Assembly (NCBI GenBank): GCA_964630525.1
Contig: CAZVUY010000001.1
Coordinates: forward strand, 114,901-178,900
Reading direction: 5' to 3'
DNA length: 64,000 nt
Source: an uncultured Candidatus Saccharibacteria bacterium
GTDB lineage: Bacteria > Patescibacteriota > Minisyncoccia > Phycocordibacterales > WO2-35-19
Part shown: in pieces, positions 11,910 through 55,280 of the stretch
How positions within the stretch are numbered: the first letter of the stretch is position 1
Layout: each line of letters begins with the position of its first letter
The notes under the pieces: model-generated
The model's input: the letters and a program-made list of their open reading frames with translations, nothing else
Databases searched by the model: none
Told to the model about the DNA's origin: nothing
Position numbers and translations under genes: made by a program

Positions 11910-11923
11910 ATTCATGGGCTACT

Positions 11924-22843: not shown

Positions 22844-22863
22844 GAGCTTGGAGCTTAGAGTAG
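22831..22863. repeat. Left half-arm of AGCT palindromic element
   Basis: The sequence agctaagagctgagagcttggagcttagagtag supplies the stop codon of the upstream gene. Confidence 0.55.
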
Positions 22864-22866
22864 AAA

Positions 22867-23235
22867 ATGCTAAAAACTTATAGAGATTTACTCATATGGA
22901 AAAGGTCGATAGATTTGGCAACAAAAGTATATAAAGTTACAGAAATTTTTCCAAAATCAGAAATATACGGGATTGTATCCCAAATGAGAAGATCGGCTGT
23001 TTCTATATCTTCAAACATAGCAGAGGGAAGGAACAGGGGCACAAGAAAAGATTTTGCTCAATTTTTGAGAATAGCGTTGGGTTCTACAGCGGAACTAGAA
23101 TCTCAGACAGAGATATCAAAAAATTTGAATTTTATAAACCAGATTGAATATTCACAGATAATCTCTGAGACAAATGAAATAGGAATGATGTTGCGTGCTA
23201 TAATTAGAAAGCTGGACTCTAAGCTCCAAGCTTAA
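22867..23235 (+). CDS. Four-helix-bundle protein of the '23S rRNA intervening-sequence protein' family
   Basis: It is 122 aa with YRDLLIWKRSIDLATKVYKVTEIFPKSEIYGIVSQMRRSAVSISSNIAEG, typical of the TIGR02436-like family. Half-arms of the AGCT element flank it on both sides. Confidence 0.75.
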   Translation: MLKTYRDLLIWKRSIDLATKVYKVTEIFPKSEIYGIVSQMRRSAVSISSNIAEGRNRGTRKDFAQFLRIALGSTAELESQTEISKNLNFINQIEYSQIISETNEIGMMLRAIIRKLDSKLQA

Positions 23236-23247
23236 AGCTCTAAGCTT
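23212..23247. repeat. Right half-arm of AGCT palindromic element
   Basis: The sequence ctggactctaagctccaagcttaaagctctaagctt encodes the last residues and the stop of the four-helix-bundle gene. Confidence 0.55.
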
Positions 23248-23250
23248 TTT

Positions 23251-23871
23251 ATGAAAAATGCTACTCAAGAATTTGTACCGATAGACGATGTGCGCGATGG
23301 GATAGCCATCCTCAAAAGCGGTGGGATGCGCGGCGTACTCATGGCTTCAAGCGTAAACTTCTCCCTCAAGTCAGAAGAGGAGAGGCAGGCTATCCTATTC
23401 CAATTCCAAGATTTCTTAAACTCTCTGGATTTTTCGGTCCAGATCATCGTCCAATCAAGAAAGCTCGATATCAGACCCTATATCGCCCTTTTGGAGAACA
23501 GGCACAAAGAGCAAACCAACGACCTGATGAAAATCCAGATCGAACAATACATTGCTTTCATTAGAAGTTTTACCGAATCGACCAACATCATGACCAAAAA
23601 CTTCTTCATTGTGGTCCCATATGATGCCGCCATCATCTCTACCAAAACAGGGTTGTTGGACAATTTGCGAGGCAATAGGAACAAAGAGACAAAGGAAGAA
23701 GATTTCGAAGAAAGGCGCAATCAGCTCGAGCAGCGAATGGGAGTGGTAGAGCAGGGCTTGGTGCGCTCCGGCGTCAGGGTAGCCAAGCTCGGTACCGACG
23801 AAGTGGTCGAGTTGTTTTATAAGATATTTAATCCGGGAGAAACGGAGAAACCAATCAAGCTTGGAGCTTGA
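23251..23871 (+). CDS. VirB4/TrbE/CagE N-terminal-domain-like protein (separate ORF)
   Basis: The motif IDDVRDGIAILKSGGMRGVLMASSVNFSLKSEEERQAILFQFQDFLNSL resembles the N-terminal domain of VirB4-family ATPases. Its stop codon lies inside a palindromic element. Confidence 0.5.
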   Translation: MKNATQEFVPIDDVRDGIAILKSGGMRGVLMASSVNFSLKSEEERQAILFQFQDFLNSLDFSVQIIVQSRKLDIRPYIALLENRHKEQTNDLMKIQIEQYIAFIRSFTESTNIMTKNFFIVVPYDAAIISTKTGLLDNLRGNRNKETKEEDFEERRNQLEQRMGVVEQGLVRSGVRVAKLGTDEVVELFYKIFNPGETEKPIKLGA

Positions 23872-23925
23872 AGCTAATAGCTTAGAGGAAAAAACTTTAA
23901 ACTCCAAGCTCTTAGCTCTAAGCTT
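23857..23925. repeat. AGCT-rich palindromic miniature element separating the two VirB4-like ORFs
   Basis: The sequence is aagcttggagcttgaagctaatagcttagagg, then aaaaaactttaaa, then ctccaagctcttagctctaagctt. Confidence 0.65.
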
Positions 23926-37012: not shown

Positions 37013-38227
37013 ATGTTTTGGAATGAACCTAAAGTTTCAATAGATGAGAAAAAAATCGACAACCTTTTGAGTAGGGGGGTAGACAGGATTTACCCTTCAA
37101 GAGAAGCTTTAAAACAACTACTCATGTCTGGCAAGAGGTTGAGGCTTTATCAAGGCTTTGATCCGACCGGTAAAGACCTTCATATTGGTCATATGGTTGG
37201 TTTGCGTAAACATCGCGAATGGCAGGAGCTCGGCCATGAGGTCATTTTTTTGATCGGTGACGGTACTGGTACCGCTGGTGATCCGAGTGGCAAAAAAAAG
37301 ACCAGGGATAAATTTTTTACCAAAAAAGAATTACGGGAAAATGCTCATGGTTATCTCAATCAAGCTGGCAAGCTGGTGCGTTTTGACGGGCCAAACCCAG
37401 TAAAAGTAATGTACAACGGTGACTGGTTAGACAAACTCACTAAAGAAGATATTTTAAACATAGCCCAAAATTTTTCGGTGCAACAACTTATTGAGCGTGA
37501 CATGTTTCAAGAAAGGTTAAAACTCGGGGAGTCTATCAATATGCGAGAATTTCTATACCCACTCCTCCAAGGCTATGATTCTGTAGCAATGGATGTGGAT
37601 TTGGAAATCGGCGGTACCGACCAGACATTCAACATGTTGGCGGGCCGAACTCTAATGAGGGCCATGAAGGGTAAAGAGAAATTTGTTATGACAACCCCAC
37701 TCCTGGTTGATGCCAAAGGGGTAAAAATAGGCAAGAGCGAGGGGAATGTAATCGCTCTTAACGATGAACCAAGTGTGTTGTTTGGTAAAATAATGTCCCT
37801 TGGGGACGACGCCATTGTTCCAATGTTAAACTTGCTTTCCGATATCTCCTCCGAAGAAATAGCTACCTTTGATATTCAAAAAAATGCCATGTCCCTCAAG
37901 AAGATGGTCGCGGAAATCATTATAAAACAACTGTATGGGGTAGAATTGGCGAGTCAAGCTAGGGCCAAATTTGAAAATACTTTTGGTCGAGGAGAGTTCC
38001 CAACGGACGCCCTGGAAATCAAAGCTCCAAAAGAATCTAAATTGGTAGATGTTTTGGTTTCAGAAAAAATAATTGAATCAAAGTCGGAATTTCGTAGATT
38101 GATTGAGGCTGGAGCAATTTCTGATTTTCCTGATCAAAAAATTTCTGACCCAAATGAAGTGGTGGGGGAGTCAAAGAGAAAAATAAAAGTTGGTAAAAAA
38201 ACTTTTGTATTCGTTATTCCTCTATAA
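37013..38227 (+). CDS. tyrS: Tyrosyl-tRNA synthetase
   Basis: It has HIGH (GKDLHIGHMVG), KIGKSEGN (KMSKS-like) and a C-terminal S4-like domain. Confidence 0.8.
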   Translation: MFWNEPKVSIDEKKIDNLLSRGVDRIYPSREALKQLLMSGKRLRLYQGFDPTGKDLHIGHMVGLRKHREWQELGHEVIFLIGDGTGTAGDPSGKKKTRDKFFTKKELRENAHGYLNQAGKLVRFDGPNPVKVMYNGDWLDKLTKEDILNIAQNFSVQQLIERDMFQERLKLGESINMREFLYPLLQGYDSVAMDVDLEIGGTDQTFNMLAGRTLMRAMKGKEKFVMTTPLLVDAKGVKIGKSEGNVIALNDEPSVLFGKIMSLGDDAIVPMLNLLSDISSEEIATFDIQKNAMSLKKMVAEIIIKQLYGVELASQARAKFENTFGRGEFPTDALEIKAPKESKLVDVLVSEKIIESKSEFRRLIEAGAISDFPDQKISDPNEVVGESKRKIKVGKKTFVFVIPL

Positions 38228-38484
38228 TAAAAACAGACCCTCTAAATTTGGATCTGTTTTTATTGTTTCTATTCTTCCCTCTCCTCTCCTTCTTCGTCGG
38301 TTTCGTCTTCCTCTTCGTCAACCTCATCCCCAGTATCTTCTCCCACACCTTCTGTATCTTCCACTTCTTCTTCTAAAACATCTTTTTGTGGATCAAAATC
38401 ATCACTCATGATTTTAAAATTATCTTTCTAATTATCCGCTGGCGCGGCTAATACTTTTTAGCATACCAAAAACTTTTTGCAACA

Positions 38485-39000
38485 CTAATTAAGCGGAATT
38501 GTGGATTGGGTGATAGAAGCGCAAGTGATGGCTACCGCTATGGCGTCGTACTCATCATCATAACGTTTTTTTTCTTTTATTTTTAATAATCGCTCTACCA
38601 TGTTTATGACCTGGTTTTTATCACTCTTACCATAACCGGTAACTGCCAGCTTGATTTGATTAGGGTTGAACTCCCTTATTTTCAAGTTGTTTTTAGCGGC
38701 TGCAGCTAAAATCACCCCTCTGGCTTCGGCCACTAACAAAGCGGTCTTTTTGTTTTTACTCCAAAGAAGGGTTTCGAGAGCGAATTGATCAGGGTTGAAT
38801 TCTTTTATTATTTCTTCAATCTTGCAGCCCAATTTAAATAACCTTAGTGAATGGGGTAGCTTCACCTCGGTTTCAAAGCATTCCGAATAGATAAGCTTTT
38901 GATCGGGACCTTTTGTTTTTAGGATGGCAATACCCATTCGACCGTAGCCTGGATCAATGCCAATAATAGTCGAACAAGGGTCTTTGATTTTTTTATTCAT
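38485..39000 (-). CDS. ruvC: Holliday junction resolvase RuvC
   Basis: IIGIDPGYGRMGIAIL is the RuvC N-terminal catalytic motif. Confidence 0.9.
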   Translation of the reverse strand: MNKKIKDPCSTIIGIDPGYGRMGIAILKTKGPDQKLIYSECFETEVKLPHSLRLFKLGCKIEEIIKEFNPDQFALETLLWSKNKKTALLVAEARGVILAAAAKNNLKIREFNPNQIKLAVTGYGKSDKNQVINMVERLLKIKEKKRYDDEYDAIAVAITCASITQSTIPLN

Positions 39001-39006
39001 GATTTG

Positions 39007-39543
39007 CTATTCCGCGTTGGTGTAAACTTCTCTCACCTCGTCGTTTTCTTCAAGCTCCTCAATTAGCTTATCGAGAATTAACCCATCTGATTCGCTGACT
39101 GATACTTTCAAATTGGGTTCCCAAGAACTGTCGGCCGATTTGGTAAAAGCCCAAGAAGCTGAACCAGGGGCGGCCAGTTCGAAACCATTTTTAGAAAGAA
39201 TATGCTTGATCTCCTGAGCTGCTTTATTTCGGTTGTCTGTGAGAGCATCAATGATAAGAGCACACCCCCCCGGACCGTAAGCTTCATAAGTTATCTGCTC
39301 CAAGTTTCCGCCCTCGCTACCGCTTTTGCCTTTGCTGACTGCCCGTTCAATGTTGTCATTTGGTACATTGGCGGCTCGAGCTTTTTCAATCGCACTTCGT
39401 AGGCTGGGCGAATTTATATCCCCACCACTCTTTTTTGACTCGATTGTAATAAAACGGACTAGTTTGCCAAAAATCTTACTCTTCTGGGCATCGGTGACCG
39501 CTTTTTTATTCTTTATTTTTGACCATTTATTGTGTCCGGACAT
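39007..39543 (-). CDS. YebC/PmpR-family transcriptional regulator (short form)
   Basis: The N-terminus MSGHNKWSKIKNKKAVTDAQKSKIFGKL matches the YebC family. Confidence 0.8.
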   Translation of the reverse strand: MSGHNKWSKIKNKKAVTDAQKSKIFGKLVRFITIESKKSGGDINSPSLRSAIEKARAANVPNDNIERAVSKGKSGSEGGNLEQITYEAYGPGGCALIIDALTDNRNKAAQEIKHILSKNGFELAAPGSASWAFTKSADSSWEPNLKVSVSESDGLILDKLIEELEENDEVREVYTNAE

Positions 39544-39567
39544 ATAACGAATATATCATAATTTTTA

Positions 39568-39618
39568 AAACCCCACCCGGCTTTTCAGCCACCCTCCCCT
39601 TGTTCAGGGGAGGGAAGG
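39568..39618. repeat. GC-rich REP-like element (ccccaccc...ccaccctcccctt-gttcagg-ggagggaagg), left copy flanking DUF559 gene
   Basis: An inverted copy lies at 40002-40049 and a direct copy at 46317-46362. Confidence 0.6.
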
Positions 39619-39626
39619 CACCACAT

Positions 39627-39977
39627 TCACGCTAAATGGTTTTGTATGGTACTCAACACTTCGTTTATATTTTGTTCAATTTGAGCATTGGAAAATCTCA
39701 AAACTTTATAATCTAAATCTGTTAAAAACTTGTCCCGTACCTCATCATACCCTTTGGCCTCTCTGGTATTATGTATTTTACCGTCAAGTTCAATGATTAG
39801 TTTCTTTTCCTTGCAATAAAAATCAAGAATATAACCACTTACACTGTGTTGTCTTCTAAACTTAATTCCCAATCTTTTATCTTTCAAATACCACCATAAT
39901 TTTTCTTCTTGAGAAGTTTGGTTTTTTCTTAATTCTTTTCGACGATCAACAAGTTTATGAATATTATGAATTTTCAC
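39627..39977 (-). CDS. DUF559 / Vsr-like endonuclease-domain protein
   Basis: KLWWYLKDKRLGIKFRRQHSVSGYILDFYCKEKKLIIELDGKIH is typical of DUF559. A ~48-bp inverted REP pair flanks it. Confidence 0.7.
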   Translation of the reverse strand: MKIHNIHKLVDRRKELRKNQTSQEEKLWWYLKDKRLGIKFRRQHSVSGYILDFYCKEKKLIIELDGKIHNTREAKGYDEVRDKFLTDLDYKVLRFSNAQIEQNINEVLSTIQNHLA

Positions 39978-40001
39978 TACACTCTAAATTATCGCGGTTT
40001 T

Positions 40002-40049
40002 CCCTCACCTGAACAAGGGGAGGGCTACGCGAAGCGAGGGGTGGGGTTT
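40002..40049. repeat. GC-rich REP-like element, right (inverted) copy flanking DUF559 gene
   Basis: ccctcacctgaacaaggggagggc...cgaggggtggggttt is the reverse complement of the left copy, with a few mismatches. Confidence 0.6.
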
Positions 40050-40111
40050 GCATTGGTTTGAAAAATAATAAGAGTGGAGTATGATTTAGGTATTAAAATT
40101 AATATAAACAT

Positions 40112-40438
40112 ATGGGAATGGAATCATTTGGCGGAGTACCTTCTAAAAAAGAAATTGAGGAACAGATTACCCCAGAAGTAATGAATGAATCGCATGATAA
40201 ATTTTTAGAGGAAGCCAGAAGGCAAGCTGAGTATTGGAACGAGGCCATAAAAGGATACCAAGCCAAAATTGAGGAATACGAAAAAGCTACTGAAGACGAG
40301 AATGGAAATATTGTCGATAAAACAGTAGGCCACACTACTACAAAAAGAGAAGGTATCCAAGGAGTGAAGAAATTAATAGAAGAGGCCGAAATAGCAAAGG
40401 AAAAAGAGGAAACTAAATTTATGTCTAAACTAGAGTAA
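40112..40438 (+). CDS. Hypothetical coiled-coil protein
   Basis: It is an E/K-rich 108-aa ORF with no motif I recognise. Confidence 0.35.
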   Translation: MGMESFGGVPSKKEIEEQITPEVMNESHDKFLEEARRQAEYWNEAIKGYQAKIEEYEKATEDENGNIVDKTVGHTTTKREGIQGVKKLIEEAEIAKEKEETKFMSKLE

Positions 40439-41461
40439 TTTCTCTCTTCTCTCCCCCGGAAAAAATAATCCTAAATGTTCATATCCTAATTTGGTCAACA
40501 CTCTACCACGAGGGGTGCGTTCGATAAATCCAATTTGGATCAGATAAGGCTCATTGAATTCTTCAATCGTAGCCTCTTCTTCGGCGAGAGAGGTGGCCAA
40601 AGTATTGAGGCCGACTGGGCCGCCATTAAATTTTTGAGCGATTGTTGTTAATAAATTTCTGTCAGACAGGTTTAGGCCAACCTCGTCTATACCAAGTAGG
40701 GCGAAAGCCTGGTTTACCACCTCTTCATCTATTTTTCTTTTTTCCATTTGGGCGTAGTCGCGAGCCCGCTTCAGCAGATAGTTGGCGGTTCTGGGGGTGA
40801 AGCGGCTGCGGCTAGCGATCGCTTTTTGAGCCGGTGTATCCAACTCGATTCCCAAAATATCAGCCGATCTTTTTACTATCTCCATTATTTCTGCTGGTGT
40901 GTAAAATTCGAGCTTGAAAATACCACCAGAAAAACGGCTCCGAAGTGGGGAAGAGATCATCGCTACTTTAGTTGTCGCTCCGATCAGGGTGAATTTGGGC
41001 AACTCTAGCTGGATAGTTCTGGCACTCGGACCCTTGCCAAGAATTATATCCAACGAACCAGATTCCATGGCGGGGTAGAGAACCTCTTCGATGTTTTTGT
41101 TGAGCCGATGAATTTCGTCTATAAACAAAATATCCTGAGCAGAAAGATTGGTTAATATCGAAGCGAGATCACCGACCTTTTCGATAGCTGGGCCAGAGGT
41201 TGAGCGCATTTGACTACCAGACTCTTTGGCGATAAGGTGGGCCAGGGTTGTTTTGCCTAAACCTGGTGGTCCATAAAAAAGCAGGTGCTCGGGAGGGTGG
41301 TTGCGTTCTTTGGCTGCTGAGAGCAGAATATGGAGGTTTTTCTTGATGTTTTCTTGGCCGATATAATCTGACCAGCGAGATGGGCGTAAGGTTTGGTCCA
41401 AAAAATCATAATCTCGCCCCTCATCTGACTGATCAGCAGGGTTTTTTGTTTTCCTTGACAT
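40430..41461 (-). CDS. ruvB: Holliday junction branch-migration helicase RuvB
   Basis: It has the Walker A LLFYGPPGLGKTTLA and a winged-helix C-terminus. Confidence 0.95.
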   Translation of the reverse strand: MSRKTKNPADQSDEGRDYDFLDQTLRPSRWSDYIGQENIKKNLHILLSAAKERNHPPEHLLFYGPPGLGKTTLAHLIAKESGSQMRSTSGPAIEKVGDLASILTNLSAQDILFIDEIHRLNKNIEEVLYPAMESGSLDIILGKGPSARTIQLELPKFTLIGATTKVAMISSPLRSRFSGGIFKLEFYTPAEIMEIVKRSADILGIELDTPAQKAIASRSRFTPRTANYLLKRARDYAQMEKRKIDEEVVNQAFALLGIDEVGLNLSDRNLLTTIAQKFNGGPVGLNTLATSLAEEEATIEEFNEPYLIQIGFIERTPRGRVLTKLGYEHLGLFFPGERREKLL

Positions 41462-41524
41462 ATTTTATGCTACATGATATACTTCTCCAGAATTTGCATT
41501 GTGGCAAAATTGGCGGCGGTTGGA

Positions 41525-41684
41525 GGTACAAATCTCTAAGCGGCGGTTCACCTTGGGTGGATTTTGACATTAAATCAAGGAAGTGCCGGTGCCATCTTTC
41601 TAAGAGGGATTGCTAGCGCTCTCCTCAGAGTAATGTTTTGCTTTCGATATAAAAATTGAAAGTGCCGCTTAGAGATTTGTATCC
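41525..41684. other. ~160-nt element closed by a 20-bp perfect long-range inverted repeat (ggtacaaatctctaagcggc / gccgcttagagatttgtatcc); candidate structured RNA or miniature element
   Basis: The arms lie at 41525-41546 and 41664-41684 in the pilB-ruvB intergenic region. The interior contains GAAGUGCCGG and GAAAGUGCCGC motifs. Confidence 0.3.
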
Positions 41685-41747
41685 CTAATTCCCATTATTC
41701 ATAAAAGGTTGCCTCGGGCAATTTTTTATGTGAATAACTTTTCATTC

Positions 41748-43427
41748 TTAAGACTCTATATCGATGACCCTGCTCAGTTCATCCAAAGAAGTGATTCCTT
41801 TTAGAATTTTTATTACCCCATCTTGGAGCATGTTCGGTATGCCTTGATCTTCAGCGGCCTTATTTATCTCTCTTTCGCTCGGGTTTTGGATGACCGCAGC
41901 CTCTATTCTTTCGTCAGTAACGATCGCTTCATAGATACCGGTTCTACCTCGATAGCCGGTGAAATTGCACAGGGCACAACCGACCGCTTCATGAATGTTG
42001 TTTGGGTCAATTTCTTTCAAGAAATCCTTGTCTTTGATTTCACTCAAAACTTTTTTGATCAGGGCCGCGTCTCTCTCGTTTGGTAGTGATTTTTTCTTGC
42101 ATTTATCACAAAGTTTTCTTACCAATCTTTGAGCCATAGCCAAATTGATAGCGGAAGTAATAACTTTTGGGTTTACCCCGAGATCAATCAATCTGGGGAA
42201 TGTGCCAGCGGCGTTGTTAGTGTGTAAGGTAGAGAAAACCAAGTGTCCAGTCAAAGCCGAGTTTACGGCTATCTCAGCTGTTTCTTCGTCGCGAATTTCT
42301 CCAACCATGATAATGTCCGGATCTTGGCGTAAAGCACTCCTGAGGCCTTCCAGAAAAGTGTAACCTTTTTCTTCCTCTGTTTGGGTTTGGACGATTCCCT
42401 TGAGATGGTACTCGATCGGGTTTTCAATAGTGATAATTTTGACTTCTGGCGAGTGGATCTTTCTCAAGAAAGCATAAAGGGTGGTGGTTTTACCCGAACC
42501 AGTCGGCCCGGTATTGAGAATCATTCCGTTGGGTTTCTTTAGTTCTTTCAGAAGGATGTTTAACAGCTTATTGTTGATACCCAAATCTTCCAAAGAGACA
42601 GCGATGGCGTTTGGGTTGAGGACTCGCAGCACCACGGAGTCGCCATAATTACCAGGGAGTAGGGAAGTACGGATCTCTATTTCGGTATCGCCAATTTTTA
42701 TACTAAACCTACCGTCTTGAGCCTTACCTTTAATGTTGAGCTTAAGGTTTGAAATGAGCTTGATTCGGGAGAGTAACAGACTGTAAATATTGTGATCAAG
42801 CTCTAAGATATCGTTTAGTACTCCGTCTAGTCGGTAACGCAGTCGGACCGAAGCCTCTTCTGGTTCGATGTGGATATCCGAGGCGTTTATGGAGATGGCG
42901 CCCGCTAGGATGATCTCTAAGATTCTGGTTATTCGATAACTCTTTTTTTGGGCCAAGACTTGGTCAATAGAATTTTTGATATCGGAAACACTTTTGACGT
43001 TTTTCACTAAGTCCTGGATTTCTTCATTCGCAATATCCAAAGCACCTCCCTTGGTTTCCATCGAATAAGATAAGTCCTTGTAGCGCTCCCAAACTTTTTG
43101 GAGACTTTGGTGAGAGACCATAAAAAGATTGACCAAGTAGCCTCTACTTTTCAAATCATCTATTATTTCAATCGTTTTCGGGTTGTTGGGGGAAATAATC
43201 GCCAAGGAAACCTTTTTGTTTATTATATTGAAGGGGGCGACTTCCGCTGCCTTTGCCACCTCTTCTTTTACAAGACGTAGAGCATCAATATTGATCGGGT
43301 TTACGCCCAGGTCAATATAGGAGAGACCGTATTTTTGAGACATTATCTTTGCCAACCCCTCTTCTTCCTCTTCTCGTAGGGTTTCTAATTTTCTTTTCTG
43401 CTTTCCTTCGTTGAATTGGATAACCAT
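41748..43427 (-). CDS. pilB: Type IV pilus assembly ATPase PilB (GspE family)
   Basis: It has the Walker A LNTGPTGSGKTTTL, an Asp box, His box and a tetracysteine motif. Confidence 0.9.
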   Translation of the reverse strand: MVIQFNEGKQKRKLETLREEEEEGLAKIMSQKYGLSYIDLGVNPINIDALRLVKEEVAKAAEVAPFNIINKKVSLAIISPNNPKTIEIIDDLKSRGYLVNLFMVSHQSLQKVWERYKDLSYSMETKGGALDIANEEIQDLVKNVKSVSDIKNSIDQVLAQKKSYRITRILEIILAGAISINASDIHIEPEEASVRLRYRLDGVLNDILELDHNIYSLLLSRIKLISNLKLNIKGKAQDGRFSIKIGDTEIEIRTSLLPGNYGDSVVLRVLNPNAIAVSLEDLGINNKLLNILLKELKKPNGMILNTGPTGSGKTTTLYAFLRKIHSPEVKIITIENPIEYHLKGIVQTQTEEEKGYTFLEGLRSALRQDPDIIMVGEIRDEETAEIAVNSALTGHLVFSTLHTNNAAGTFPRLIDLGVNPKVITSAINLAMAQRLVRKLCDKCKKKSLPNERDAALIKKVLSEIKDKDFLKEIDPNNIHEAVGCALCNFTGYRGRTGIYEAIVTDERIEAAVIQNPSEREINKAAEDQGIPNMLQDGVIKILKGITSLDELSRVIDIES

Positions 43428-43558
43428 GAATTAAATTGTACCATAAGACCTCACCCCCGACCCCTCTCCCCCCGCTTCGCCAAGGCTTCGCTGGGCGAGT
43501 AGAATTAGGAGAGGGGAGAAATAGAAGCTTGTAGTTTTATGGTAGTATAGAAAATTAT

Positions 43559-43999
43559 ATGGAAATTATTTCTAAAAATACAGAAGAAACCAAACAGGCA
43601 GCTTTCGATTTTGCCGCTAATTTAAAGCCGAGAGGTACCGGCGCGACCATAGTCGGTCTTTATGGCGAGCTTGGTGCTGGCAAGACCACTTTTATGAAAT
43701 ATTTAGCCGAACATTTTGGAGTAAAAGAAACAGTACAGAGTCCAACTTTTGTGATTATGAAATCTTTCAATCTTTCGACCCCTCCTTTTTTTAATAAGCT
43801 GATCCATATTGACGCCTATCGCCTAGAAGACCCGTCAGAGATGCTCAAATTGGGTTGGCAAGAAATGATTGGTTACCCCAAAAATCTGATTTGTATCGAA
43901 TGGCCGGAAAAAATAGAAAACATCTTACCACCCCATATTGTGGTAAGATTTGAGCATGTTAAAGACGGGGAAAGTCAAAGAAAGATTAGTTTTGCTTGA
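43559..43999 (+). CDS. tsaE: tRNA threonylcarbamoyladenosine biosynthesis protein TsaE
   Basis: It has the P-loop GELGAGKTTFMKYLAEHFG and QSPTF. Confidence 0.8.
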   Translation: MEIISKNTEETKQAAFDFAANLKPRGTGATIVGLYGELGAGKTTFMKYLAEHFGVKETVQSPTFVIMKSFNLSTPPFFNKLIHIDAYRLEDPSEMLKLGWQEMIGYPKNLICIEWPEKIENILPPHIVVRFEHVKDGESQRKISFA

Positions 44000-46316
44000 T
44001 GCCCACGCCATCATTCACCGGGCGTATCACGCTTTGCCGGATTTTGCGACTAGCCGAGGGGAACCGACCGGGGCTCTCTACGGCCTTACTTTGATGGTTT
44101 TGAAGATCGCTTCCGAACTGAAACCCGATTTCCTGATCGCTTGTTTTGATCTGCCCAAACCCACTTATCGACACGAGGTTTACGAGGGCTACAAAGCTGG
44201 TCGGCAGAAGACTGACGACGACCTGGCAATCCAGCTTGAGAAGTCGAAATCGATCTGCGAGGCGCTCAACATCCCGATCTACTCCAAAGAAGGATTCGAA
44301 GCCGATGATATGCTTGGGACCATTGTGGAAAGGTTGAAAAATGAAGATTTAGAAATCATTATCGCTTCTGGTGATATGGACACTCTCCAGCTTGTCGACG
44401 GCCAGGTGAAAGTCTATACCCTTAAAAAGGGAATCAAAGACACGATCCTTTATGATGAAAAAGCTGTTAAAGAAAGATTTGGTTTTGAACCCCGACTTCT
44501 GCCCGATTATAAAGGTTTGCGGGGCGACCCCTCAGACAACATTATTGGAATTCCCGGTATTGGTGAGAAAAGTGCGACCGAACTCATCACCAACTTTGGT
44601 AGTCTGGAAAACATATACAAAAAATTAAAAGCCAAAAACTCAGAACTTCAGGAAAAAATAAAACCAAGAACTCTGGAATTGTTGAAAGAGGGAGAAGAGG
44701 AAGCCAAATTTAGCAAAATGCTCGCTACCATTAGAAGGGATGCCTCGATAGATTTTGAACTACCTAAAAAACGTTGGTCTGATGGACTAGACTTAAAAAG
44801 AGCTGAAGAGATATTTACCGCCTTTGAATTTAGAACAATGGGCCAAAAACTCAGGGAGGCTTTAAATAAAAATGGGACAGCAACAGTAGAAAAACAAAAA
44901 CAAACAGAAGATATAAATCCTACCGAACTAGAAGAGACTCTCTTGGCTTTGTGGGTGGTGGATTCGAATATCACTAACCCGAAAATCGAAGATCTTTTCA
45001 GATTTGCTCAGACTGAGGATTTCCGTGTGGCTAGAGACAAAGTTTTCTTGGAGCTTAAAAAGAGAGAAAGCGAATCTGTTTTTGCCGAAATAGAAAAGCC
45101 GCTAATCCCGATCCTGAAGGAAACCGAGCGCTATGGTATTTTGGTCGATAAAGTTTTTTTGGGTAAACTCAAAGAAGAATATTCCAAAGAATTGAAAGAG
45201 GTTGAAGAAAAGATCTGGCAACTGGCTGGTGCCACTAAATTCAATATCGCTTCACCAAAGCAACTCTCAGAGATTCTTTTTGATAAGCTTGGACTCCAGG
45301 TTAAAAATCACAAGAAGACTGGATCTGGTGCCAAGTCGACCCGCGAATCAGAATTGGAGAAGATGAAAGGAATGCACCCGATCGTACCGTTGGTGCTGGA
45401 GTATCGGGAAATCAGCAAACTTCTCTCTACTTATATCGAACCGATCCCAAAAGCACTTGACCAAAATTCAAGACTTCATTCTCACTTTGTCCAAGCCGGA
45501 GCAGCGACAGGTAGAATGTCTTCGGAAAATCCAAATTTGCAAAATATTCCGATTGGGAGTGAGAGGGGTAGAAGAATAAGACATGCTTTCTTGGCATCAA
45601 CAGGCCACCAGCTGCTGGCTCTCGACTATTCCCAGATTGAACTAAGGATCGCCGCTATCTTATCCAGAGAAGATAGTCTGATTGATATTTTTAAGAGCGG
45701 CAAGGATGTGCACACCGCGGTTGCGGCAGAAGTGTTTGGTGTTTCTCTGGAATCGGTGACCAAAGAGATGCGTCGCCAAGCGAAGGTGATAAATTTCGGT
45801 ATTCTCTATGGTATGGGAGTGAACGCTCTTCAGGTTAATCTGGGTACTGACCGGAAAACTGCCCAACAATTTTTGAATGCTTATTTTGCTAATTTCCCGA
45901 AATTGTCAGAGTATTTGGATCAGTCAAAACTGAGGGCGGAGCGTGATGGTTATACAAAAACCATCTTTGGCCGGCGCCGCTATTTTGAAGGGATCAAATC
46001 AAAAATCCCTTACATCAAGGCAGCGGCGGAGAGGATGGCGATCAACGCGCCAATTCAGGGTACCAACGCTGACATTGTCAAAATAGCAATGAAAAGAATT
46101 GATGAGATGCTACAGCAAGAGGGGTGGTCAAAAGAAGTACATCTGCTCATGCAAATACATGACGAATTGGTGTACGAAGTGAATGACCGGCTTATCGACC
46201 CTTTTAGTAGGGTGGCAAAAGAGATCATGGAACAAGTGTTGACCAAGGAGCAGACTCTCGGGGTGCCGATCGTTGTCAATCATTCAGTTGGGCCAAATTG
46301 GGGGGAGATGAAATGA
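43950..46316 (+). CDS. polA: DNA polymerase I (5'-3' exonuclease + polymerase domains)
   Basis: It has the 5'-nuclease N-terminus, motif A DYSQIELRIAA, motif B RRQAKVINFGILYGMG and motif C QIHDELVYEV. Confidence 0.95.
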   Translation: MSMLKTGKVKERLVLLDAHAIIHRAYHALPDFATSRGEPTGALYGLTLMVLKIASELKPDFLIACFDLPKPTYRHEVYEGYKAGRQKTDDDLAIQLEKSKSICEALNIPIYSKEGFEADDMLGTIVERLKNEDLEIIIASGDMDTLQLVDGQVKVYTLKKGIKDTILYDEKAVKERFGFEPRLLPDYKGLRGDPSDNIIGIPGIGEKSATELITNFGSLENIYKKLKAKNSELQEKIKPRTLELLKEGEEEAKFSKMLATIRRDASIDFELPKKRWSDGLDLKRAEEIFTAFEFRTMGQKLREALNKNGTATVEKQKQTEDINPTELEETLLALWVVDSNITNPKIEDLFRFAQTEDFRVARDKVFLELKKRESESVFAEIEKPLIPILKETERYGILVDKVFLGKLKEEYSKELKEVEEKIWQLAGATKFNIASPKQLSEILFDKLGLQVKNHKKTGSGAKSTRESELEKMKGMHPIVPLVLEYREISKLLSTYIEPIPKALDQNSRLHSHFVQAGAATGRMSSENPNLQNIPIGSERGRRIRHAFLASTGHQLLALDYSQIELRIAAILSREDSLIDIFKSGKDVHTAVAAEVFGVSLESVTKEMRRQAKVINFGILYGMGVNALQVNLGTDRKTAQQFLNAYFANFPKLSEYLDQSKLRAERDGYTKTIFGRRRYFEGIKSKIPYIKAAAERMAINAPIQGTNADIVKIAMKRIDEMLQQEGWSKEVHLLMQIHDELVYEVNDRLIDPFSRVAKEIMEQVLTKEQTLGVPIVVNHSVGPNWGEMK

Positions 46317-46362
46317 CCCCACCCAGCCTTTGGCCACCCTCCCCTTGGTAAGGGGAGGGAAG
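46317..46362. repeat. GC-rich REP-like element, third copy
   Basis: ccccacccagcctttggccaccctccccttggtaaggggagggaag lies immediately after the polA stop. Confidence 0.55.
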
Positions 46363-46370
46363 ACAAAAAC

Positions 46371-46799
46371 ATGGAAAATCAAAGTTTATTTAAAGAATAC
46401 AAAGGAGTTTTTGAAGAAGAAGTCGAAACTCCAAAAGAAAAGAAAGAGCTTGAATATACGTATTCTCCTTTTGCCCTACAAGATGCGATTGGGGAGCGGA
46501 ATGTTAAAAATATTTGGATACAATACAACAAACTCATCTTCCAAGGTGTTGAACCCGAAGAGTTGGTCCATAAAATTGTTGGCAAAGTGAGAGATATGGT
46601 GGCGATCGGTGCTGGGGCTAGTGCGCTAGACTTGGGTATCAAAGATTATCCATTCAATAAATCAAAAAAAGATTTGAAAAATTGGAAAACAGACGATTTG
46701 AAAAATTTTTATACCAAACTAATCACTCTTTATCACGAATCAAGAATGGGTGGTGATGAGCTAGGGATTGCTTTAGAGAAAGCACTGCTAAGTTTATAA
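46371..46799 (+). CDS. Hypothetical protein; its last ~25 codons are duplicated at 48122-48199
   Basis: The C-terminus is ...HESRMGGDELGIALEKALLSL. Confidence 0.5.
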   Translation: MENQSLFKEYKGVFEEEVETPKEKKELEYTYSPFALQDAIGERNVKNIWIQYNKLIFQGVEPEELVHKIVGKVRDMVAIGAGASALDLGIKDYPFNKSKKDLKNWKTDDLKNFYTKLITLYHESRMGGDELGIALEKALLSL

Positions 46800-46842
46800 T
46801 TACACCGAATTATAGTATGGAGATAAAGTAACGAATAAGTGC

Positions 46843-48108
46843 TTACCCAGCAAAACCTATAAAAGCGACGTATCTCCCAATTACAGCTCCAACTATCACA
46901 ATAATAATACACACGGAAAGAGTGATCATCAGATGAGATGGAGTGGCGTTAGTCGCTATTCCAGATAATTTCTTTTTATTGTTAAACTTGTAAGCCATTA
47001 CGGTAAAAATTATTGCGGAAATCCAGTAAAAAAAGATTGGGTCTGTTGTTTGTCCCACTACTTCACCCAAACGGGCAACAAAAATATTCCTGTAGGCGCT
47101 GTTTAGGAAACCATATTCCGAAGTTAGGGTAGACAATAAAGCGAGAATACTTGTAAAAAACCCTGCAAAAGAATAAACGTTTATTTTTACAAAATCATTC
47201 GTATTGTTTTTATAAATTAAAAATCCAATAAAGATGATTAGTAGAATTCGCATGATGTTTGTAAAAACCCCAGTCTCTAAGCCGGGAGTAATTTTTACAT
47301 CATCAATCATTGTGGGAAAATTTGTTGTCGTGTAATCCAACCACTGGCCCCTCTCTTTTTGTAACTGCTCTAATGTTGCAATATCGCTGATTTTTCTTAC
47401 CTGACTGTAAGAATTGTATGCTACATGGGGGTAAACGCTCCTATAAATTCCTGGCGAGATTTCCCCTTCATAACCTATTCCACCCGGACTGTATTTAACG
47501 GTATAATCCGCGGCGGGGACACTTATTATGTAATCATTATATTCTGCTGCTAATGCGTATATGTCGGTCACATCTACGTTGTCAAAATACTTTGTAATTT
47601 TAAAATAATGAGTACATGAACCATTACCACATAAGAAATTTATAATTTCTGTATCAGGGGCTTGGCCACTTGTTACAGGAAGACCATTACTTTGGGGGAA
47701 AGGCGTCTGGTCATCAGTGGTTACAGTAGGAATTGTTATTCCAAATTTATTACTAATTTCTAAACTCCCAGGAGCAATAATATATATCTTAAAACCATAG
47801 CCAGAACCATAAATGTCTGGAACAATCAAACTATATGAACCATTATTTGGTACTCCGGAAGCAATTTCATATACATAATTTCTGTCAGGGTTGTCGTTAT
47901 TCGGTACTTCTAGCTTAATATCAACAGTAGGAGAATTGGTGAAAGTGTTCCACTTTATATCAAAACTTGAACCTTGGACCAAATTTTCATTACCACTAGG
48001 GGCAAGAATAAAAGAGCTTGGGCTCGGTGTAGTAACTTGCGCGTAGATATGGAATGGGAATAAGACTAAAAACTCAAAAATAGCTATAAACGCTATTATC
48101 CTTCTCAT
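46843..48108 (-). CDS. Hypothetical surface protein: signal peptide, extracellular domain, C-terminal multi-TM anchor
   Basis: It is 421 aa with at least 4 C-terminal hydrophobic helices. Direct repeats at 46732-46765 and 48132-48165 bracket it. Confidence 0.55.
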   Translation of the reverse strand: MRRIIAFIAIFEFLVLFPFHIYAQVTTPSPSSFILAPSGNENLVQGSSFDIKWNTFTNSPTVDIKLEVPNNDNPDRNYVYEIASGVPNNGSYSLIVPDIYGSGYGFKIYIIAPGSLEISNKFGITIPTVTTDDQTPFPQSNGLPVTSGQAPDTEIINFLCGNGSCTHYFKITKYFDNVDVTDIYALAAEYNDYIISVPAADYTVKYSPGGIGYEGEISPGIYRSVYPHVAYNSYSQVRKISDIATLEQLQKERGQWLDYTTTNFPTMIDDVKITPGLETGVFTNIMRILLIIFIGFLIYKNNTNDFVKINVYSFAGFFTSILALLSTLTSEYGFLNSAYRNIFVARLGEVVGQTTDPIFFYWISAIIFTVMAYKFNNKKKLSGIATNATPSHLMITLSVCIIIVIVGAVIGRYVAFIGFAG

Positions 48109-48239: not shown

Positions 48240-48315
48240 GCGCCCGTAGCTCAGTCGGTAGAGCAGCTCCCTTTTAAGGAGATGGTCGTAGGTTCGATTC
48301 CTACCGGGCGCACCA
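48240..48315 (+). tRNA. tRNA-Lys (anticodon UUU)
   Basis: Acceptor GCGCCCG/CGGGCGC, D-arm GCUC-AGUCGGUA-GAGC, anticodon loop CUUUUAA, T-arm GUAGG-UUCGAUU-CCUAC and an encoded CCA. Confidence 0.85.
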
Positions 48316-49779
48316 GAAAGGAAATTGCAAGTCAGAGCTCGCCGCCTCGCTCTGCTCGGCGGCTCGCGCGTATTGTATTTTCGGCTCAAAACGGAATTCG
48401 CGATTTCGCAAAACATGGTTCGCGCCGATGTTTTTTAGAAATGCTGTCATTTTGGCAAAATCATTTTCGTTAGTCAGATTCGCGGCTTGATTCAAGGATA
48501 AAACAAATTCACGAGCCGGTTCGAGCCAAGACGCTCCTTTTTGCTCGATGTCGGTAATTTTCTCCTCCAATCGCACTTTTTCATACACGAGAGAGTTCTT
48601 TTTGGCGGCGTATTCGTCTGTGGATAGCGCGTCAGAAAGATAAAGGTTGAGAAGTTTTTCGAGCTTTGCCTCAATCTGCGCGAGTTCTCTTTTTAGAGTT
48701 TCCGCTTCTGTTCGCGCTTCCTCCTTTGCTTGCTCCTCGTCTTGTTCCAACGCCGCCAAAACTTTCTTGGTGTCTTGGCCCGATAAAGAAACTTTTTGAA
48801 GATAAGTTTTGATTTGCGCGGCAAGCATAGTTTCGCTGATGTAGCGTTCCGGGCACGCGCCTCGTTTTTTGGTACAGCGATAGTAGGTATAAGAGCCACC
48901 ATTGCCTTTTGCATATTGCGCGGTAATAGAACAACCGCACGAGGCGCATTTGAGTAGTCCGAGGAACGCGAAACTGTGTTTGCGGTCTGGTCGCACCTTG
49001 CCGCGCTTTTGCATAACTTCTTGGCATTTATCAAAAAGTTTCTTTGAAATTAACGGCTCGTGTTTTCCCTCAAAAGTTTCCGACTTGTACCTCATCAAAC
49101 CAGTGTAGAAAGGATTTTGGAGTATGGACTGAACATTGCTTAATGATATTTTCTTGCCTTTGTTGCCGAGCAGTTTCTTTTTCTCACACCAATTTGCGAG
49201 AGCAGAAAGTGGATATGCTCCGGTGGCGTAGAGTTCAAACATTTTTCTCACTTTCGGTGCTTTGTCGGGGTCAATATCAATTATTCTCGTCTTGGGATTG
49301 TTGAGATAGCCCACCGGAGCCCAGCCGGGCCATACTCCATTTCGTATCTTTTGCCGCAAACCTCTTTTTACATTCTCTCTCAAATTGTCTACGAAATATT
49401 TACTCTGTCCGAAAGCAATGTTCAACATAAACAAGCCTTGTGGTGTCGGTTCAAACCAAAAAGTCGGAAACTTGAGGGAACGAATCAAGCCGCGATCAAT
49501 CAGATGTATGATTTTGCCTCCGTCCACCGAATTTCGGGCAAGGCGGTCGGGGTGCCACGCGATAATGCCGTCTGCTTTTTGTCGTTCAATCAATGACAGC
49601 ATTTCTGCGAACTTCGTTCGCCCGGGCTCTTTTGCGGTTTTCGCCTCCTCAAAGGAGGCGACAATTTCAAGTTTTTCTTTGACGGCGAATGCGCGCAACT
49701 CTTCAAGTTGCGCCTGAATAGAAAGCACCTGTCTGTCCTCTTCCTCTGTACTTTTTCTTGCGTAGAGTATGTATCTCAT
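48301..49779 (-). CDS. Large serine recombinase (resolvase/invertase catalytic domain + recombinase domain + zinc ribbon)
   Basis: It carries YARKST and the active-site Ser region, ...VGYLNNPKT..., CxxC...C, and a coiled-coil C-terminus. The ORF reads through IR-A into the tRNA, so the true 3' end is uncertain. GC content is visibly higher than in flanking genes. Confidence 0.8.
   Translation of the reverse strand: MRYILYARKSTEEEDRQVLSIQAQLEELRAFAVKEKLEIVASFEEAKTAKEPGRTKFAEMLSLIERQKADGIIAWHPDRLARNSVDGGKIIHLIDRGLIRSLKFPTFWFEPTPQGLFMLNIAFGQSKYFVDNLRENVKRGLRQKIRNGVWPGWAPVGYLNNPKTRIIDIDPDKAPKVRKMFELYATGAYPLSALANWCEKKKLLGNKGKKISLSNVQSILQNPFYTGLMRYKSETFEGKHEPLISKKLFDKCQEVMQKRGKVRPDRKHSFAFLGLLKCASCGCSITAQYAKGNGGSYTYYRCTKKRGACPERYISETMLAAQIKTYLQKVSLSGQDTKKVLAALEQDEEQAKEEARTEAETLKRELAQIEAKLEKLLNLYLSDALSTDEYAAKKNSLVYEKVRLEEKITDIEQKGASWLEPAREFVLSLNQAANLTNENDFAKMTAFLKNIGANHVLRNREFRFEPKIQYARAAEQSEAASSDLQFPFWCAR
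48309..48408. repeat. ~100-bp perfect inverted repeat IR-A (partner 49826-49925) bracketing the serine recombinase; begins inside the tRNA-Lys 3' end
   Basis: gcaccagaaaggaaattgcaagtcagagctcgcc...cggaattcgcgatttcg has an exact reverse complement at 49826-49925. Confidence 0.7.
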
Positions 49780-49825
49780 GTTGTTTTGATTGAATTAAGG
49801 ATTAAAAATTTTTCTTCCCCTCAAA

Positions 49826-49925
49826 CGAAATCGCGAATTCCGTTTTGAGCCGAAAATACAATACGCGCGAGCCGCCGAGCAGAGCGAGGCGGCGAGCTCT
49901 GACTTGCAATTTCCTTTCTGGTGCA
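49826..49925. repeat. IR-A' (inverted copy of 48309-48408)
   Basis: It is an exact reverse complement of IR-A. The 26-bp IR-C ggattaaaaatttttcttcccctcaa (49799-49824) precedes it, and its partner is at 50061-50086. Confidence 0.7.
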
Positions 49926-50012
49926 GGATACTTGAATTAGTGCGAACCCACCGCGCCTTCGGCGCGGCACAACCCCCGCCAAAAATGCAGGCGGCGAAGC
50001 CGCACCGCTCAA
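49921..50012. repeat. ~92-bp perfect inverted repeat IR-B (partner 51006-51097) bracketing a membrane-protein gene
   Basis: gtgcaggatacttgaattagtgcgaacccaccgcgccttcggcgcggcacaacccccgccaaaaatgcaggcggcgaagccgcaccgctcaa has an exact reverse complement at 51006-51097. Confidence 0.7.
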
Positions 50013-50257
50013 AACCGCAAAAGAGCCCGGAAAAAACATCGGCGCGAACCATGTTTTGAATTGAGGGGAAGAAAAATTTTTAATCCAATAAATTCCCAAG
50101 GAAGAAGCCGCAATCGTGCGGATTTTTCGTTGCCCTTGACGTAAGGTACGGAATATGCTATGCTTATTTGCGAAAGATTGAGCCATGGTGGCTTGGTCGC
50201 AATAGCACATTTTCAACTCAAAAAACGGAGGTGCAGCTTGAGCGCAGAAACGATTGG

Positions 50258-50849
50258 CATGGTTTCTGGGCTGTTGGTGGTGGCGAGCGTCATCCCTTAC
50301 AGCATCAGAACCCACCAGGGCAAGGTGCAGCCGAACCTGACGAGCTGGTCGCTCTGGACGCTGATCGGCCTCGCCCTCTTGCTCACTTACAAGAGTTCGG
50401 GTGCCGAAGCGAACGTCTGGCCAGCGGTGTTCGGGTTCACTAACCCGCTCCTCATCACCTTGCTTGTTCTCAAACAGCATGGTGGGTGGACGAAGCCAAA
50501 CCGAGTCGAGGTCGCTTGTCTCGTGTTTGGCCTGTTGTCTCTCGGCCTGTGGCTGGGAGTTCGCGAAAACAAGGAGATGGCCCAATGGGCTCTCTATCTG
50601 GCAATTGTCGCGGACTTGTTCGCGGCGATTCCCACGATTGTGTTCGTGTGGACGCAACCGAATGGCGACCGACCGTTTGCTTGGGCGTTCTTCGCCGTCG
50701 GCTATGGTCTGGCAATCTTCGCCATTACCGAACACACCTTCGCGAACTACGTTCTCCCGCTCTACATGTTCTTCGGAGCGTTGAGCGTTACTCTCCCACT
50801 CGTTCTGTATCGGTGGCGACACAAAGTCCCGTTGTCGGAGTGGGTATGA
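50258..50849 (+). CDS. Hypothetical polytopic membrane protein (about 6 TM) inside IR-B/IR-B' segment
   Basis: The sequence from MVSGLLVVASVIPYS... onward is GC-rich. The track ORF starts at 50160. The antisense ORF 49821-50975 is an alternative that I judge spurious. Confidence 0.45.
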
Positions 50850-51005
50850 GTCAGAGACGAATAGCAAATCCGAGGCCCCTTGTGGTAGCAACATCACCAC
50901 TTGGGGCCTTTCTTCTTTTTGATTTGTTTGGTTATTTTTCATACAATACATTTGGTGTTTGCTTCGCAAACTCACATTTATTCGCCGTCAAAGAAAAACT
51001 TGAAA

Positions 51006-51097
51006 TTGAGCGGTGCGGCTTCGCCGCCTGCATTTTTGGCGGGGGTTGTGCCGCGCCGAAGGCGCGGTGGGTTCGCACTAATTCAAGTATCCTGCAC
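51006..51097. repeat. IR-B' (inverted copy of 49921-50012)
   Basis: It is an exact reverse complement of IR-B. Confidence 0.7.
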
Positions 51098-51280
51098 AAA
51101 ATAGCGGAGCAATTTTGTGCGCCCGAGCAAGCAAACTGCTTTGCTTGCGGGTAGGAATCGAACGGCGGAATGTGAAATTTGGAGCACCAAATTTCCATGA
51201 GCCGGTGCCCAGACCAAAAATTTGTGACTGACAAATTTTTGAGTCGAGGGAGATATTCCTACCGAGATTTTATTATTATC

Positions 51281-55204: not shown

Positions 55205-55280
55205 AAAGCTTAAAACTAAGAGCTTTTAGCTTAGAGTGTAAGGGAATAAACTTCAAGCTCCTAGCTCTCAGCTCTAAGCC
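55205..55280. repeat. AGCT-rich palindromic miniature element between mutM and murE; encodes the last residues and stop of the Mur ligase
   Basis: The sequence is aagcttaaaactaagagcttttagcttagagtg, then taagggaataaact, then tcaagctcctagctctcagctctaagcc. Confidence 0.6.

Follow-up and report, generated by a model that had tools for sequence, protein, structure and literature searches.

Why is the ruvB-yebC-ruvC run of a Patescibacterium interrupted by a small nuclease gene that carries a GC-rich repeat on each side? The question is raised by a 64,000-nt stretch of an uncultured Candidatus Saccharibacteria bacterium (contig CAZVUY010000001.1, positions 114,901 to 178,900), hereafter called the window, which has a G+C content of about 42% and in which a DUF559 gene, coding for a Vsr-like nuclease, is located between ruvB and yebC. 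The source names of homologues point to a Paceibacteria/Zambryskibacteria-like lineage within the Patescibacteria. On balance, we lean towards the view that positions 39571-40046 form a discrete, horizontally mobile cassette with dispersed, triplex-type ends, that this cassette is located within an 886-bp insertion between ruvB and yebC, and that its nuclease acts on the repeats. The first part of this answer, a discrete unit that moved between genomic sites, is well supported. As to the second part, we infer from sequence comparison that the DUF559 protein may act on the repeats and that this action may spread them.

A nuclease gene, its inverted ends and the indel around them

In the initial annotation the DUF559 gene was described as bracketed by an inverted pair of GC-rich repeats. 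This was confirmed, and the limits were refined to those given below (positions of the window).

39627-39977, minus strand: DUF559 (Vsr-like PD-(D/E)XK) nuclease gene, 116 aa, GTG start, PF04480 match with E 3e-35
39571-39614, plus strand: downstream end of the cassette (copy 1), 44 nt, inverted relative to the upstream end
40002-40046, minus strand: upstream end of the cassette (copy 2), 45 nt, imperfect reverse complement of copy 1
39978-40001, minus strand: conserved spacer from the upstream hairpin to the start codon, with a -10-like GATAAT at 39988-39993

Copy 1 is composed of an outer block CCCCACCC (39571-39578), a 13-nt middle (GGCTTTTCAGCCA / GGCTtttcAGCC) and a hairpin CCCTCCCC-ttgttca-GGGGAGGG (39592-39614). 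On the plus strand, copy 2 runs in the order hairpin (40002-40024), 13-14-nt middle and GGGGTGGGG (40038-40046), which in the orientation of the gene gives CCCCACCCC, a mini-hairpin region and CCCTCCCC-ttgttca-GGTGAGGG. A repeat finder reported the two copies as 25-nt arms with 96% complementarity, and their 13-14-nt middles differ. As the hairpin itself is palindromic, only the loop and the outer CCCCACCC/GGGTGGGG blocks reveal the orientation of the pair; the loop (ttgttca versus tgaacaa) and these blocks both agree with an inverted arrangement. The 23-nt hairpin pattern, allowing at most 3 mismatches, was found at 3 sites in the 64 kb versus 0 expected from 100 shuffles. DNA folding z-scores of -3.2 and -4.2, which refer to hairpin folding only, were listed with the downstream end (39571-39614).

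Other DUF559 copies with the same flanks, for which the initial annotation had suggested looking, were found in three other contexts (loci and contigs used for comparison are labelled here by L-numbers). All these nearest homologues, with 67-77% identity, have the same inverted ends.

L005 and L008: DUF559 cassette between a nusA-region gene and tig
L011 and L021: DUF559 cassette between an MFS transporter gene and the RNase J gene
L015: DUF559 cassette after comEC (comEC..acetyltransferase)

When six cassettes were aligned, similarity began at (A)ACCCCACCC and ended at GGGTGGGGTT, the DNA outside being 38-39% identical. Across the six, identity amounted to 100% in the terminal 8-mers, 92% in the upstream hairpin and 57% at third codon positions. 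The non-coding ends are thus better kept than third codon positions and are constrained more strongly than silent sites, and it is well supported that they are functional. Ends were also found without the gene. In L093, from a Zambryskibacteria genome, the two ends of a gene-less cassette are joined by about 30 nt, which are the sequence normally found beside the start and stop codons, and L083 forms a compact palindrome in which two outer arms enclose a single central hairpin. Solo and doublet copies of the element also exist. Clustering of the motif, another suggestion of the initial annotation, brought out a family that is dispersed and occurs in solo, doublet and gene-less form.

A second small unknown gene was observed beside some DUF559 cassettes (L021 5488-6069, 149 aa; L143 4449-4927, about 116 codons, convergent). 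It has its own copy of the "upstream-type" element, which gives a two-gene unit with inward-facing repeats as bounds.

The site itself was compared between strains and species. The arrangement of the window recurs in four metagenomic contigs of its own species (98-100% identity). In relatives whose YebC is 97% (L144 and L145), 82% (L146) and 78% (L147) identical, only 4-12 nt separate the ruvB stop codon from the yebC ATG, and the gene order T2SSE-ruvB-yebC-ruvC-tyrS is common to the window and these empty-site relatives. Since ruvB and yebC are adjacent in all four, the DUF559 region is an indel that splits a native ruvB-yebC-ruvC run, and as the two more distant relatives are also empty, a gain in the lineage of the window is the parsimonious direction. 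In L144, the closest relative, the flanking DNA has 93% identity to the window, ending at 39543 on one side and resuming at 40473 on the other. The C-terminus of RuvB in the window is like that of L146, which best places the added DNA at 39544-40429.

39544-40429: indel segment from the ruvB stop codon to the yebC start codon, 886 bp, missing in close relatives
40112-40438, plus strand: orf108, 108 codons, inside the indel and outside the repeat-bounded cassette

The gene names ruvC, yebC (a short form), ruvB and polA of the initial annotation were borne out by profile searches, and ruvA was located at 56661-57224, at a distance of about 15 kb from ruvB. Its proposal that a cassette splits ruvC-yebC from ruvB needs to be qualified: the native run is indeed split, but the indel of 886 bp exceeds the repeat-bounded cassette of 476 bp. 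The flanks of the cassette are A/T-rich (..TAA, element, TTAAAA..).

Differences between strains point to a cassette that is distinct from its surroundings. Only 1 difference was counted in 533 nt of 39571-40111, which covers the cassette and 65 nt of adjoining spacer, versus 37 in 1569 nt of the flanking ruvB and yebC, mostly at synonymous sites. By this measure the cassette seems younger than the DNA around it, unless it has been homogenised. As for orf108, no homologue was found outside the species of the window, three of its four strain differences are non-synonymous, and a promoter-like site is located near it at 40058-40085. It is a doubtful gene and probably not a conserved one. For the same reasons, that is its restriction to the species and its mostly non-synonymous strain differences, orf108 was rejected as a DUF559 companion in a conserved two-gene module.

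Two of the same-species contigs end close to the cassette: that of L002 about 40 nt past the DUF559 stop codon, inside the downstream repeat, and that of L004 about 110 nt past it, just beyond the repeat. Breaks of this type are expected where an assembly halts at a multi-copy element. In parallel, YebC (39007-39543) was seen to have 178 aa in the window and 176-182 aa in nearly all of its 120 closest homologues, the usual length being about 240 aa. Against the Pfam profile of the second and third domains, it matches in two separate stretches, the best of which covers positions 1-55 of the 160-position profile.

The repeats and their link with DUF559 genes

Outside the cassette, the window contains two further elements of this kind.

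46317-46359, plus strand: solo copy 3, direct relative to copy 1, after the polA stop codon and ahead of the next gene
43449-43512, plus strand: related element with a C-block and a hairpin, CCTCACCCC, cga, CCCCTCTCC-loop-GGAGAGGGG, and a loop insert at 43470-43499

Both had been pointed out before, as a third direct copy after polA and as a related motif set near 43451-43518, and both were found again, the latter as a C-block with a CCCCTCTCC...GGAGAGGGG hairpin. The same-species contigs L001 and L002 share copy 3. The 30-nt loop insert of the related element, CCCCGCTTCGCCAAGGCTTCGCTGGGCGAG (43470-43499), is present in the window and in L002 and absent from L001, L003 and L144, in which the loop is "tagaatta". 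No other copy of this insert was found in the window or in the 228 compared loci. It is a strain-level indel within a hairpin loop.

What are these repeats? Their three blocks are CCCTCCCC / GGGGAGGG / GGGTGGGG, and GGGGAGGG is mirrored by GGGTGGGG, which gives a T.A:T position. Judged by this layout, the window elements belong to the three-block mirror class known as BoxC/PIT/TM, as a variant and not as copies of TM_ECO. The consensus of the E. coli TM motif is CCCTCNCCC-N3-6-GGGNGAGGG-N3-GGGNGAGGG (Holder et al. 2015, PMC4666352). The window copies have 8-nt blocks, a first loop of 7 nt and a second loop of 13-14 nt, and therefore do not match this strict pattern. Although termed REP-like in the initial annotation, they are not strict REPs, their architecture being that of the BoxC/PIT/TM intrastrand-triplex motifs. 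A classical REP identity was rejected, as the GTAG head is absent and a third mirror block is present. No match to any element was obtained with the Rfam 15 covariance models over 38000-47500 at E <= 1.

BoxC/PIT/TM motifs are conserved and abundant in Enterobacteria and Cyanobacteria, in which they occur singly or as inverted pairs (PMC4666352). The TM motif forms a triplex in vitro, not demonstrably in vivo, and TM loci of E. coli are hot spots that rearrange more than control loci. In the same study, a mobility or transposase-like function was never found near the motifs and their mechanism and origin were left open; neither ycjD nor the word "endonuclease" appears in it (PMC4666352).

The distribution of the window type was examined in one genome per species with the exact pattern CCCCACCC-N8-22-CCCTCCCCTTG, which was found in at least 120 stretches. 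Among the matches listed, about 125, the closing GGGGAGGG arm is present in 88, and the hosts include Nostocales, Rhizobiales and other Alphaproteobacteria, Prevotella/Bacteroides, Gammaproteobacteria, a spirochaete and several Patescibacteria. Their middle segments comprise 98 distinct and quite different sequences that mostly fold as small hairpins, with a mean folding energy of -5.9 kcal/mol versus -2.1 when shuffled. Close to DUF559 genes, at least 27 arm types are found in the main hairpins (CCCTCCCC, CCCTCTCC, CCTTCTCC, CCCCTCC and others), always paired with the complementary arm. The outer block obeys a mirror rule: its sequence is that of the purine arm in reverse, in which an A may stay or give way to T. 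Counting perfect mirror blocks at a distance of at most 35 nt, 83 hairpin sides near DUF559 genes had one versus 20 in the direct-repeat control, and this for more than 15 arm types.

The association between gene and repeat was assessed in metagenome contigs with 80 relatives of the window protein (42-78% identity), counting perfect C-rich pyrimidine/purine hairpins with a stem of at least 7 bp within 160 nt of the gene. Their density was 4.5 per kb within this distance of DUF559 genes versus 0.2 per kb elsewhere in the same loci. Such a hairpin was present on at least one side of 57 of the 68 DUF559 genes for which both flanks were available, versus 8 of 21 neighbouring control genes (Fisher p ~1e-4), and on both sides of 27 of the 68, versus 0 of 21 (Fisher p ~2e-4). 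It is well supported that DUF559 genes are preferentially bracketed by triplex-type repeats.

Could an abundant intergenic repeat simply flank an unrelated small gene by coincidence? The repeats are common in these genomes, C-rich hairpins being found on 19% of control gene sides in related contigs, and the DUF559 signal is accordingly an enrichment and not exclusivity. Nevertheless, the 64 kb contain only three copies and one related element, two of the copies enclose this gene as an inverted pair, such a bracket recurs in six independent contexts, and hairpins on both sides were seen at DUF559 genes and at none of the controls. Chance is hardly credible as an explanation.

The repeats could also be expression signals only, namely an upstream promoter and a downstream stabiliser of the mRNA 3' end or terminator, around a gene that moves by ordinary recombination. 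The TTG of the hairpin loop (within 40011-40016) lies 17 nt upstream of the GATAAT in the DUF559 spacer, the TTG and ATA..T columns are invariant at fixed spacing in the six-cassette alignment, and the start codon follows about 10 nt on. REP-like hairpins in general stabilise mRNA 3' ends, which would suit the downstream copy. Against this, the outermost 8-mers, which are outside any promoter, are the most conserved part (100%), the orientation is reversed in L098, L197 and L203, and solo, doublet and gene-less copies exist. A scan for consensus promoters and terminators did not call the inferred DUF559 promoter, so that the promoter idea stays weak, and it called no intrinsic terminator. In E. 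coli, PIT elements had neither promoter nor terminator activity (PMC4666352). We therefore regard a role restricted to expression as improbable.

Two arrangements of the repeats around the gene were observed: either the outer block lies on the far side of the hairpin from the gene, which is the order in the window, or this order is reversed (e.g. in L098, L197 and L203). In L098, from Brevundimonas, the gene is located inside a doublet of a type that is common without the gene in Alphaproteobacteria. Symmetry is kept in both arrangements, which argues for a role at the DNA level and against a role for one RNA strand. This bears on a further explanation, in which DUF559, as a RAP-like protein, would bind or cut the structured RNA of the elements without any action on DNA. 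RAP-type proteins come just after nucleases in the fold search described below, and the mini-hairpins often have GNRA or UNCG-like loops on one strand. However, a complete Vsr-type catalytic set is conserved, inverted ends would yield different RNA strands, the upstream element is ahead of the likely transcription start, and purine-motif triplexes do not form in RNA (PMC4666352). A partner acting at the RNA level is thus very improbable.

In L197 and L210 (1380-1900 in both), two metagenomic DUF559 cassettes of reversed arrangement appear to be embedded in a reading frame that runs on into a DNA methyltransferase-like motif (..LDPCCGSGHFLV..). An ORF of L197 terminates within the DUF559 match, and this copy may be a pseudogene.

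The same neighbourhood of gene and repeat is encountered in E. coli. In K-12, ycjD is located between sapF and fabI, and TM_ECO copy 9 (1351204-1351239), one of the 23 copies of Holder et al., lies about 170 nt downstream of it, with the hairpin proximal to ycjD and the third block distal, as in the window. On the downstream side only, the motif is intact; a degenerate motif overlaps the ycjD stop codon. The ycjD gene and its downstream region are present in 3377 of 5426 complete E. coli genomes and are thus accessory. In other phylogroups, the exact place of ycjD is occupied by the eefRABCD operon, of which at least two independent losses were described (2026 study, PMC12817139). In a spread sample of chromosomes, the median number of other TM-like matches was 17 in ycjD-positive (n=37) and 8 in ycjD-negative chromosomes (n=23, many with 1-2), a difference with a Mann-Whitney p = 6e-9; as this contrast follows phylogroup, it is confounded and only suggestive.

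In the K-12 sequence (L229, NC_000913.3; 8330-8500, corresponding to 1351329-1351499), the terminal ~35 nt of ycjD (ggagacggtgctggagaatattc...ctgaaccg) occur a second time, about 90 nt further downstream. The degenerate stop-codon motif lies between the two copies of the ycjD end, as if an element had inserted with duplication.

The nuclease and its possible action on the repeats

The protein is clearly assigned to PF04480 (120.8 bits versus a curated cut-off of 20.6, with the E value given above). Its best NCBIfam match is the YcjD family PRK09767 (E 2.6e-24), with 85.5 bits, below the equivalog cut-off of 218, which by this comparison makes it a relative and not an orthologue of YcjD. An AF2 model with a pLDDT of 86.8 predicts a restriction-endonuclease-like (Vsr) fold. 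In Foldseek, the best match of the model was 3hrl (E 1.8e-7), next came the homing endonuclease I-Bth0305I (3r3p, E 1e-4, TM-score 0.65-0.76), and Vsr (1cw0) was matched with a probability of 0.98. RAP-type apicomplexan mitoribosomal proteins were found just after the first nucleases, followed by PvuRts1I and Vsr.

Residues D52, E63, D65, H69 and D78 are invariant and E24 nearly so in alignments of 14 and 28 sequences. The catalytic residues of Vsr are E25, D51, H69 and D97, and an EDxHD composite is found in homing enzymes (PMC3239194); as mapped by alignment, the conserved DUF559 residues appear to correspond to this Vsr/EDxHD catalytic set. With pN/pS of about 0.2 versus homologues, at silent sites near saturation, DUF559 is predicted to be an intact Vsr-fold nuclease under purifying selection.

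A very-short-patch repair pair of the Vsr/Dcm type was also considered for this gene, whose neighbours are ruvB, orf108, yebC and ruvC, and was rejected, since no methyltransferase was present among the genes profiled from 37013 to 46799. The PADLOC defence-system models gave weak domain-level matches only.

How would such an enzyme lead to a mobile cassette? The nuclease would recognise the structured repeats, probably as hairpin or triplex DNA extruded in replication or under supercoiling, and would nick or cut at them. Repair or recombination between dispersed copies would then spread the repeats together with the DNA between an inverted pair, nuclease gene included. The logic would be that of a REP/RAYT system or of a free-standing homing endonuclease, although the enzyme and the repeat differ.

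Several observations weigh against this reading of the locus. The indel extends beyond the repeats, by about 380 bp towards ruvB (a part that includes orf108) and by 27 bp towards yebC, and the data therefore do not establish a clean insertion of a 476-bp unit. Among the six aligned cassettes, no target-site duplication recurred consistently. The empty site, a 12-nt spacer in L144, has no pre-existing repeat, and simple homing into a repeat therefore fails to explain the insertion in the window. On the side of the protein, 116 aa leave no obvious separate DNA-binding domain. On the side of the repeats, their orientation relative to the gene is reversed in some lineages, and they are encountered on control gene sides as described above. 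Only 4 of 120 repeat-centred 8-kb genome loci, among the matches listed, contain DUF559; these four genes each abut a repeat and belong to four phyla (Brevundimonas, Prevotellaceae, Caldilineaceae and Zambryskibacteria). The confounded copy-number contrast in E. coli and the behaviour of PIT elements, which are without promoter or terminator activity and form no stable triplex in vivo (PMC4666352), point in the same direction.

Part of these data would suit a domesticated host nuclease that is inherited mostly vertically and that processes or resolves repeat hairpins or triplexes, or binds them for self-regulation, the flanking repeats being binding sites and not transposon ends. The cassette indeed occupies the same site in pairs of related genomes (L005/L008 at nusA..tig; L011/L021 at MFS..RNase J), purifying selection is strong, the window has one copy of the gene and several solo repeats, and ycjD is stably kept across E. 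coli phylogroups A, B1 and C. RAYTs have likewise been argued to be host enzymes. Yet the gene is missing at this site in a close relative and the diversity of the cassette is very low. Moreover, the cassette is found in different contexts across genomes, and gene-less cassettes keep both ends, which is typical of mobile units. Domestication appears rather unlikely on this evidence, and we retain the mobile cassette as the preferred reading.

A broader proposal may be put forward, more tentatively than the reading of the locus itself: stand-alone DUF559 proteins such as YcjD might be the cognate enzymes of BoxC/PIT/TM repeats, which they would recognise as folded three-block DNA, cut and spread, thereby causing the instability of TM loci. 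If so, this would be a cross-phylum analogue of the REP/RAYT system that combines a Vsr fold with triplex-prone DNA, and it would provide both a function for a large DUF and an origin for repeats that have been unexplained since the 1990s. Indeed, BoxC/PIT/TM motifs have been known in E. coli since that time and have been catalogued in thousands of genomes, but neither a protein partner nor a mode of mobility or a function has come to light. DUF559, for its part, is a very large family whose structure has been solved but for which no role is known. With a reproducible physical link between DUF559 and the repeats, seen in Patescibacteria and as far away as E. coli K-12, both problems become open to experiments in a standard strain, and the link also accounts for the interrupted ruvB-yebC-ruvC run of the window. 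No publication linking DUF559 or YcjD to these repeats was found in a search that did not extend to subscription journals, and an earlier description is possible.

Other repeats of the window and known systems

Further repeats were noticed elsewhere in the window. A gene for a large serine recombinase with Resolvase, Recombinase and Zn-ribbon domains (48301-49779, minus strand) sits among long perfect or near-perfect inverted repeats in the region 48301-51104. These include two 99-nt inverted pairs (48310-48408/49826-49924 and 49914-50012/51006-51104) besides several pairs of 26-29 nt. An invertible or mobile segment would be one explanation for the region, an assembly artefact another. A separate repeat family, unrelated to that of the cassette, consists of AGCTnAGAGCT-like units at 16037-16118, 22329-22420, 22831-22877, 23213-23246, 23858-23924 and 55214-55280, in both orientations, that could form hairpins. 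A G+C-rich 37-mer, CCCGCCCGCAACGCTCTCGCTAGCGAGGCGGGCGGGC, at 11149-11185 has a perfect reverse complement 11 kb apart (22146-22182). Inverted repeats of 53 nt (89%) and 25 nt (96%) at 302-386 and 11836-11916 bracket an 11.5-kb segment. Finally, a gene whose 421-aa product has a Kre9/KNH-like domain (46843-48108) lies between the two copies of a 52-nt direct repeat (85%; 46732-46783/48132-48183).

Among known systems, the repeats of the cassette can be compared with the BoxC/PIT/TM motifs (Hoyne et al. 2000; Holder et al. 2015, PMC4666352), with which they share the order of GC-rich pyrimidine arm, loop, purine arm, spacer and mirror block. They likewise resemble them in being intergenic, single or in inverted pairs, and tied to local indels, BoxC/PIT/TM being widespread in Proteobacteria and Cyanobacteria. 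They differ from them by blocks of 8 instead of 9 nt, by a first loop of 7 instead of 3-6 nt, by a covarying mini-hairpin of 13-14 nt in place of a second loop of 3 nt, and by their host, a Patescibacterium.

The cassette as a whole recalls REP/RAYT and REPIN systems, which also consist of a single nuclease-type gene with inverted flanking copies of a repeat that is dispersed as singlets and inverted doublets. The RAYT enzyme is however an HUH Y1 (IS200/IS605-like) transposase, whereas a Vsr-like PD-(D/E)XK protein is found here; unlike REPs, the window repeats lack the GTAG head and have a third mirror block, and their core sequence is common across phyla. In the same way, terminal inverted repeats, gene-less derivatives (L093, L083) and insertion polymorphism are shared with miniature inverted-repeat transposable elements (MITEs) and small insertion sequences, but the cassette contains DUF559 only and neither a DDE nor another known transposase.

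With respect to the enzyme, the EDxHD homing endonuclease I-Bth0305I (PMC3239194) has the same fold and type of catalytic residues, and is encoded by a selfish gene with presence/absence polymorphism. The window protein differs from it by the absence of the N-terminal NUMOD/helix-turn-helix region, and its gene differs from homing genes in being free-standing, intergenic and bounded by inverted repeats instead of being located in an intron or intein. E. coli YcjD and N. gonorrhoeae NGO0050 (PDB 3hrl), which are also stand-alone DUF559 proteins, share family and size with the window protein, at an identity of about 40% (42% to 3hrl in the Foldseek alignment).

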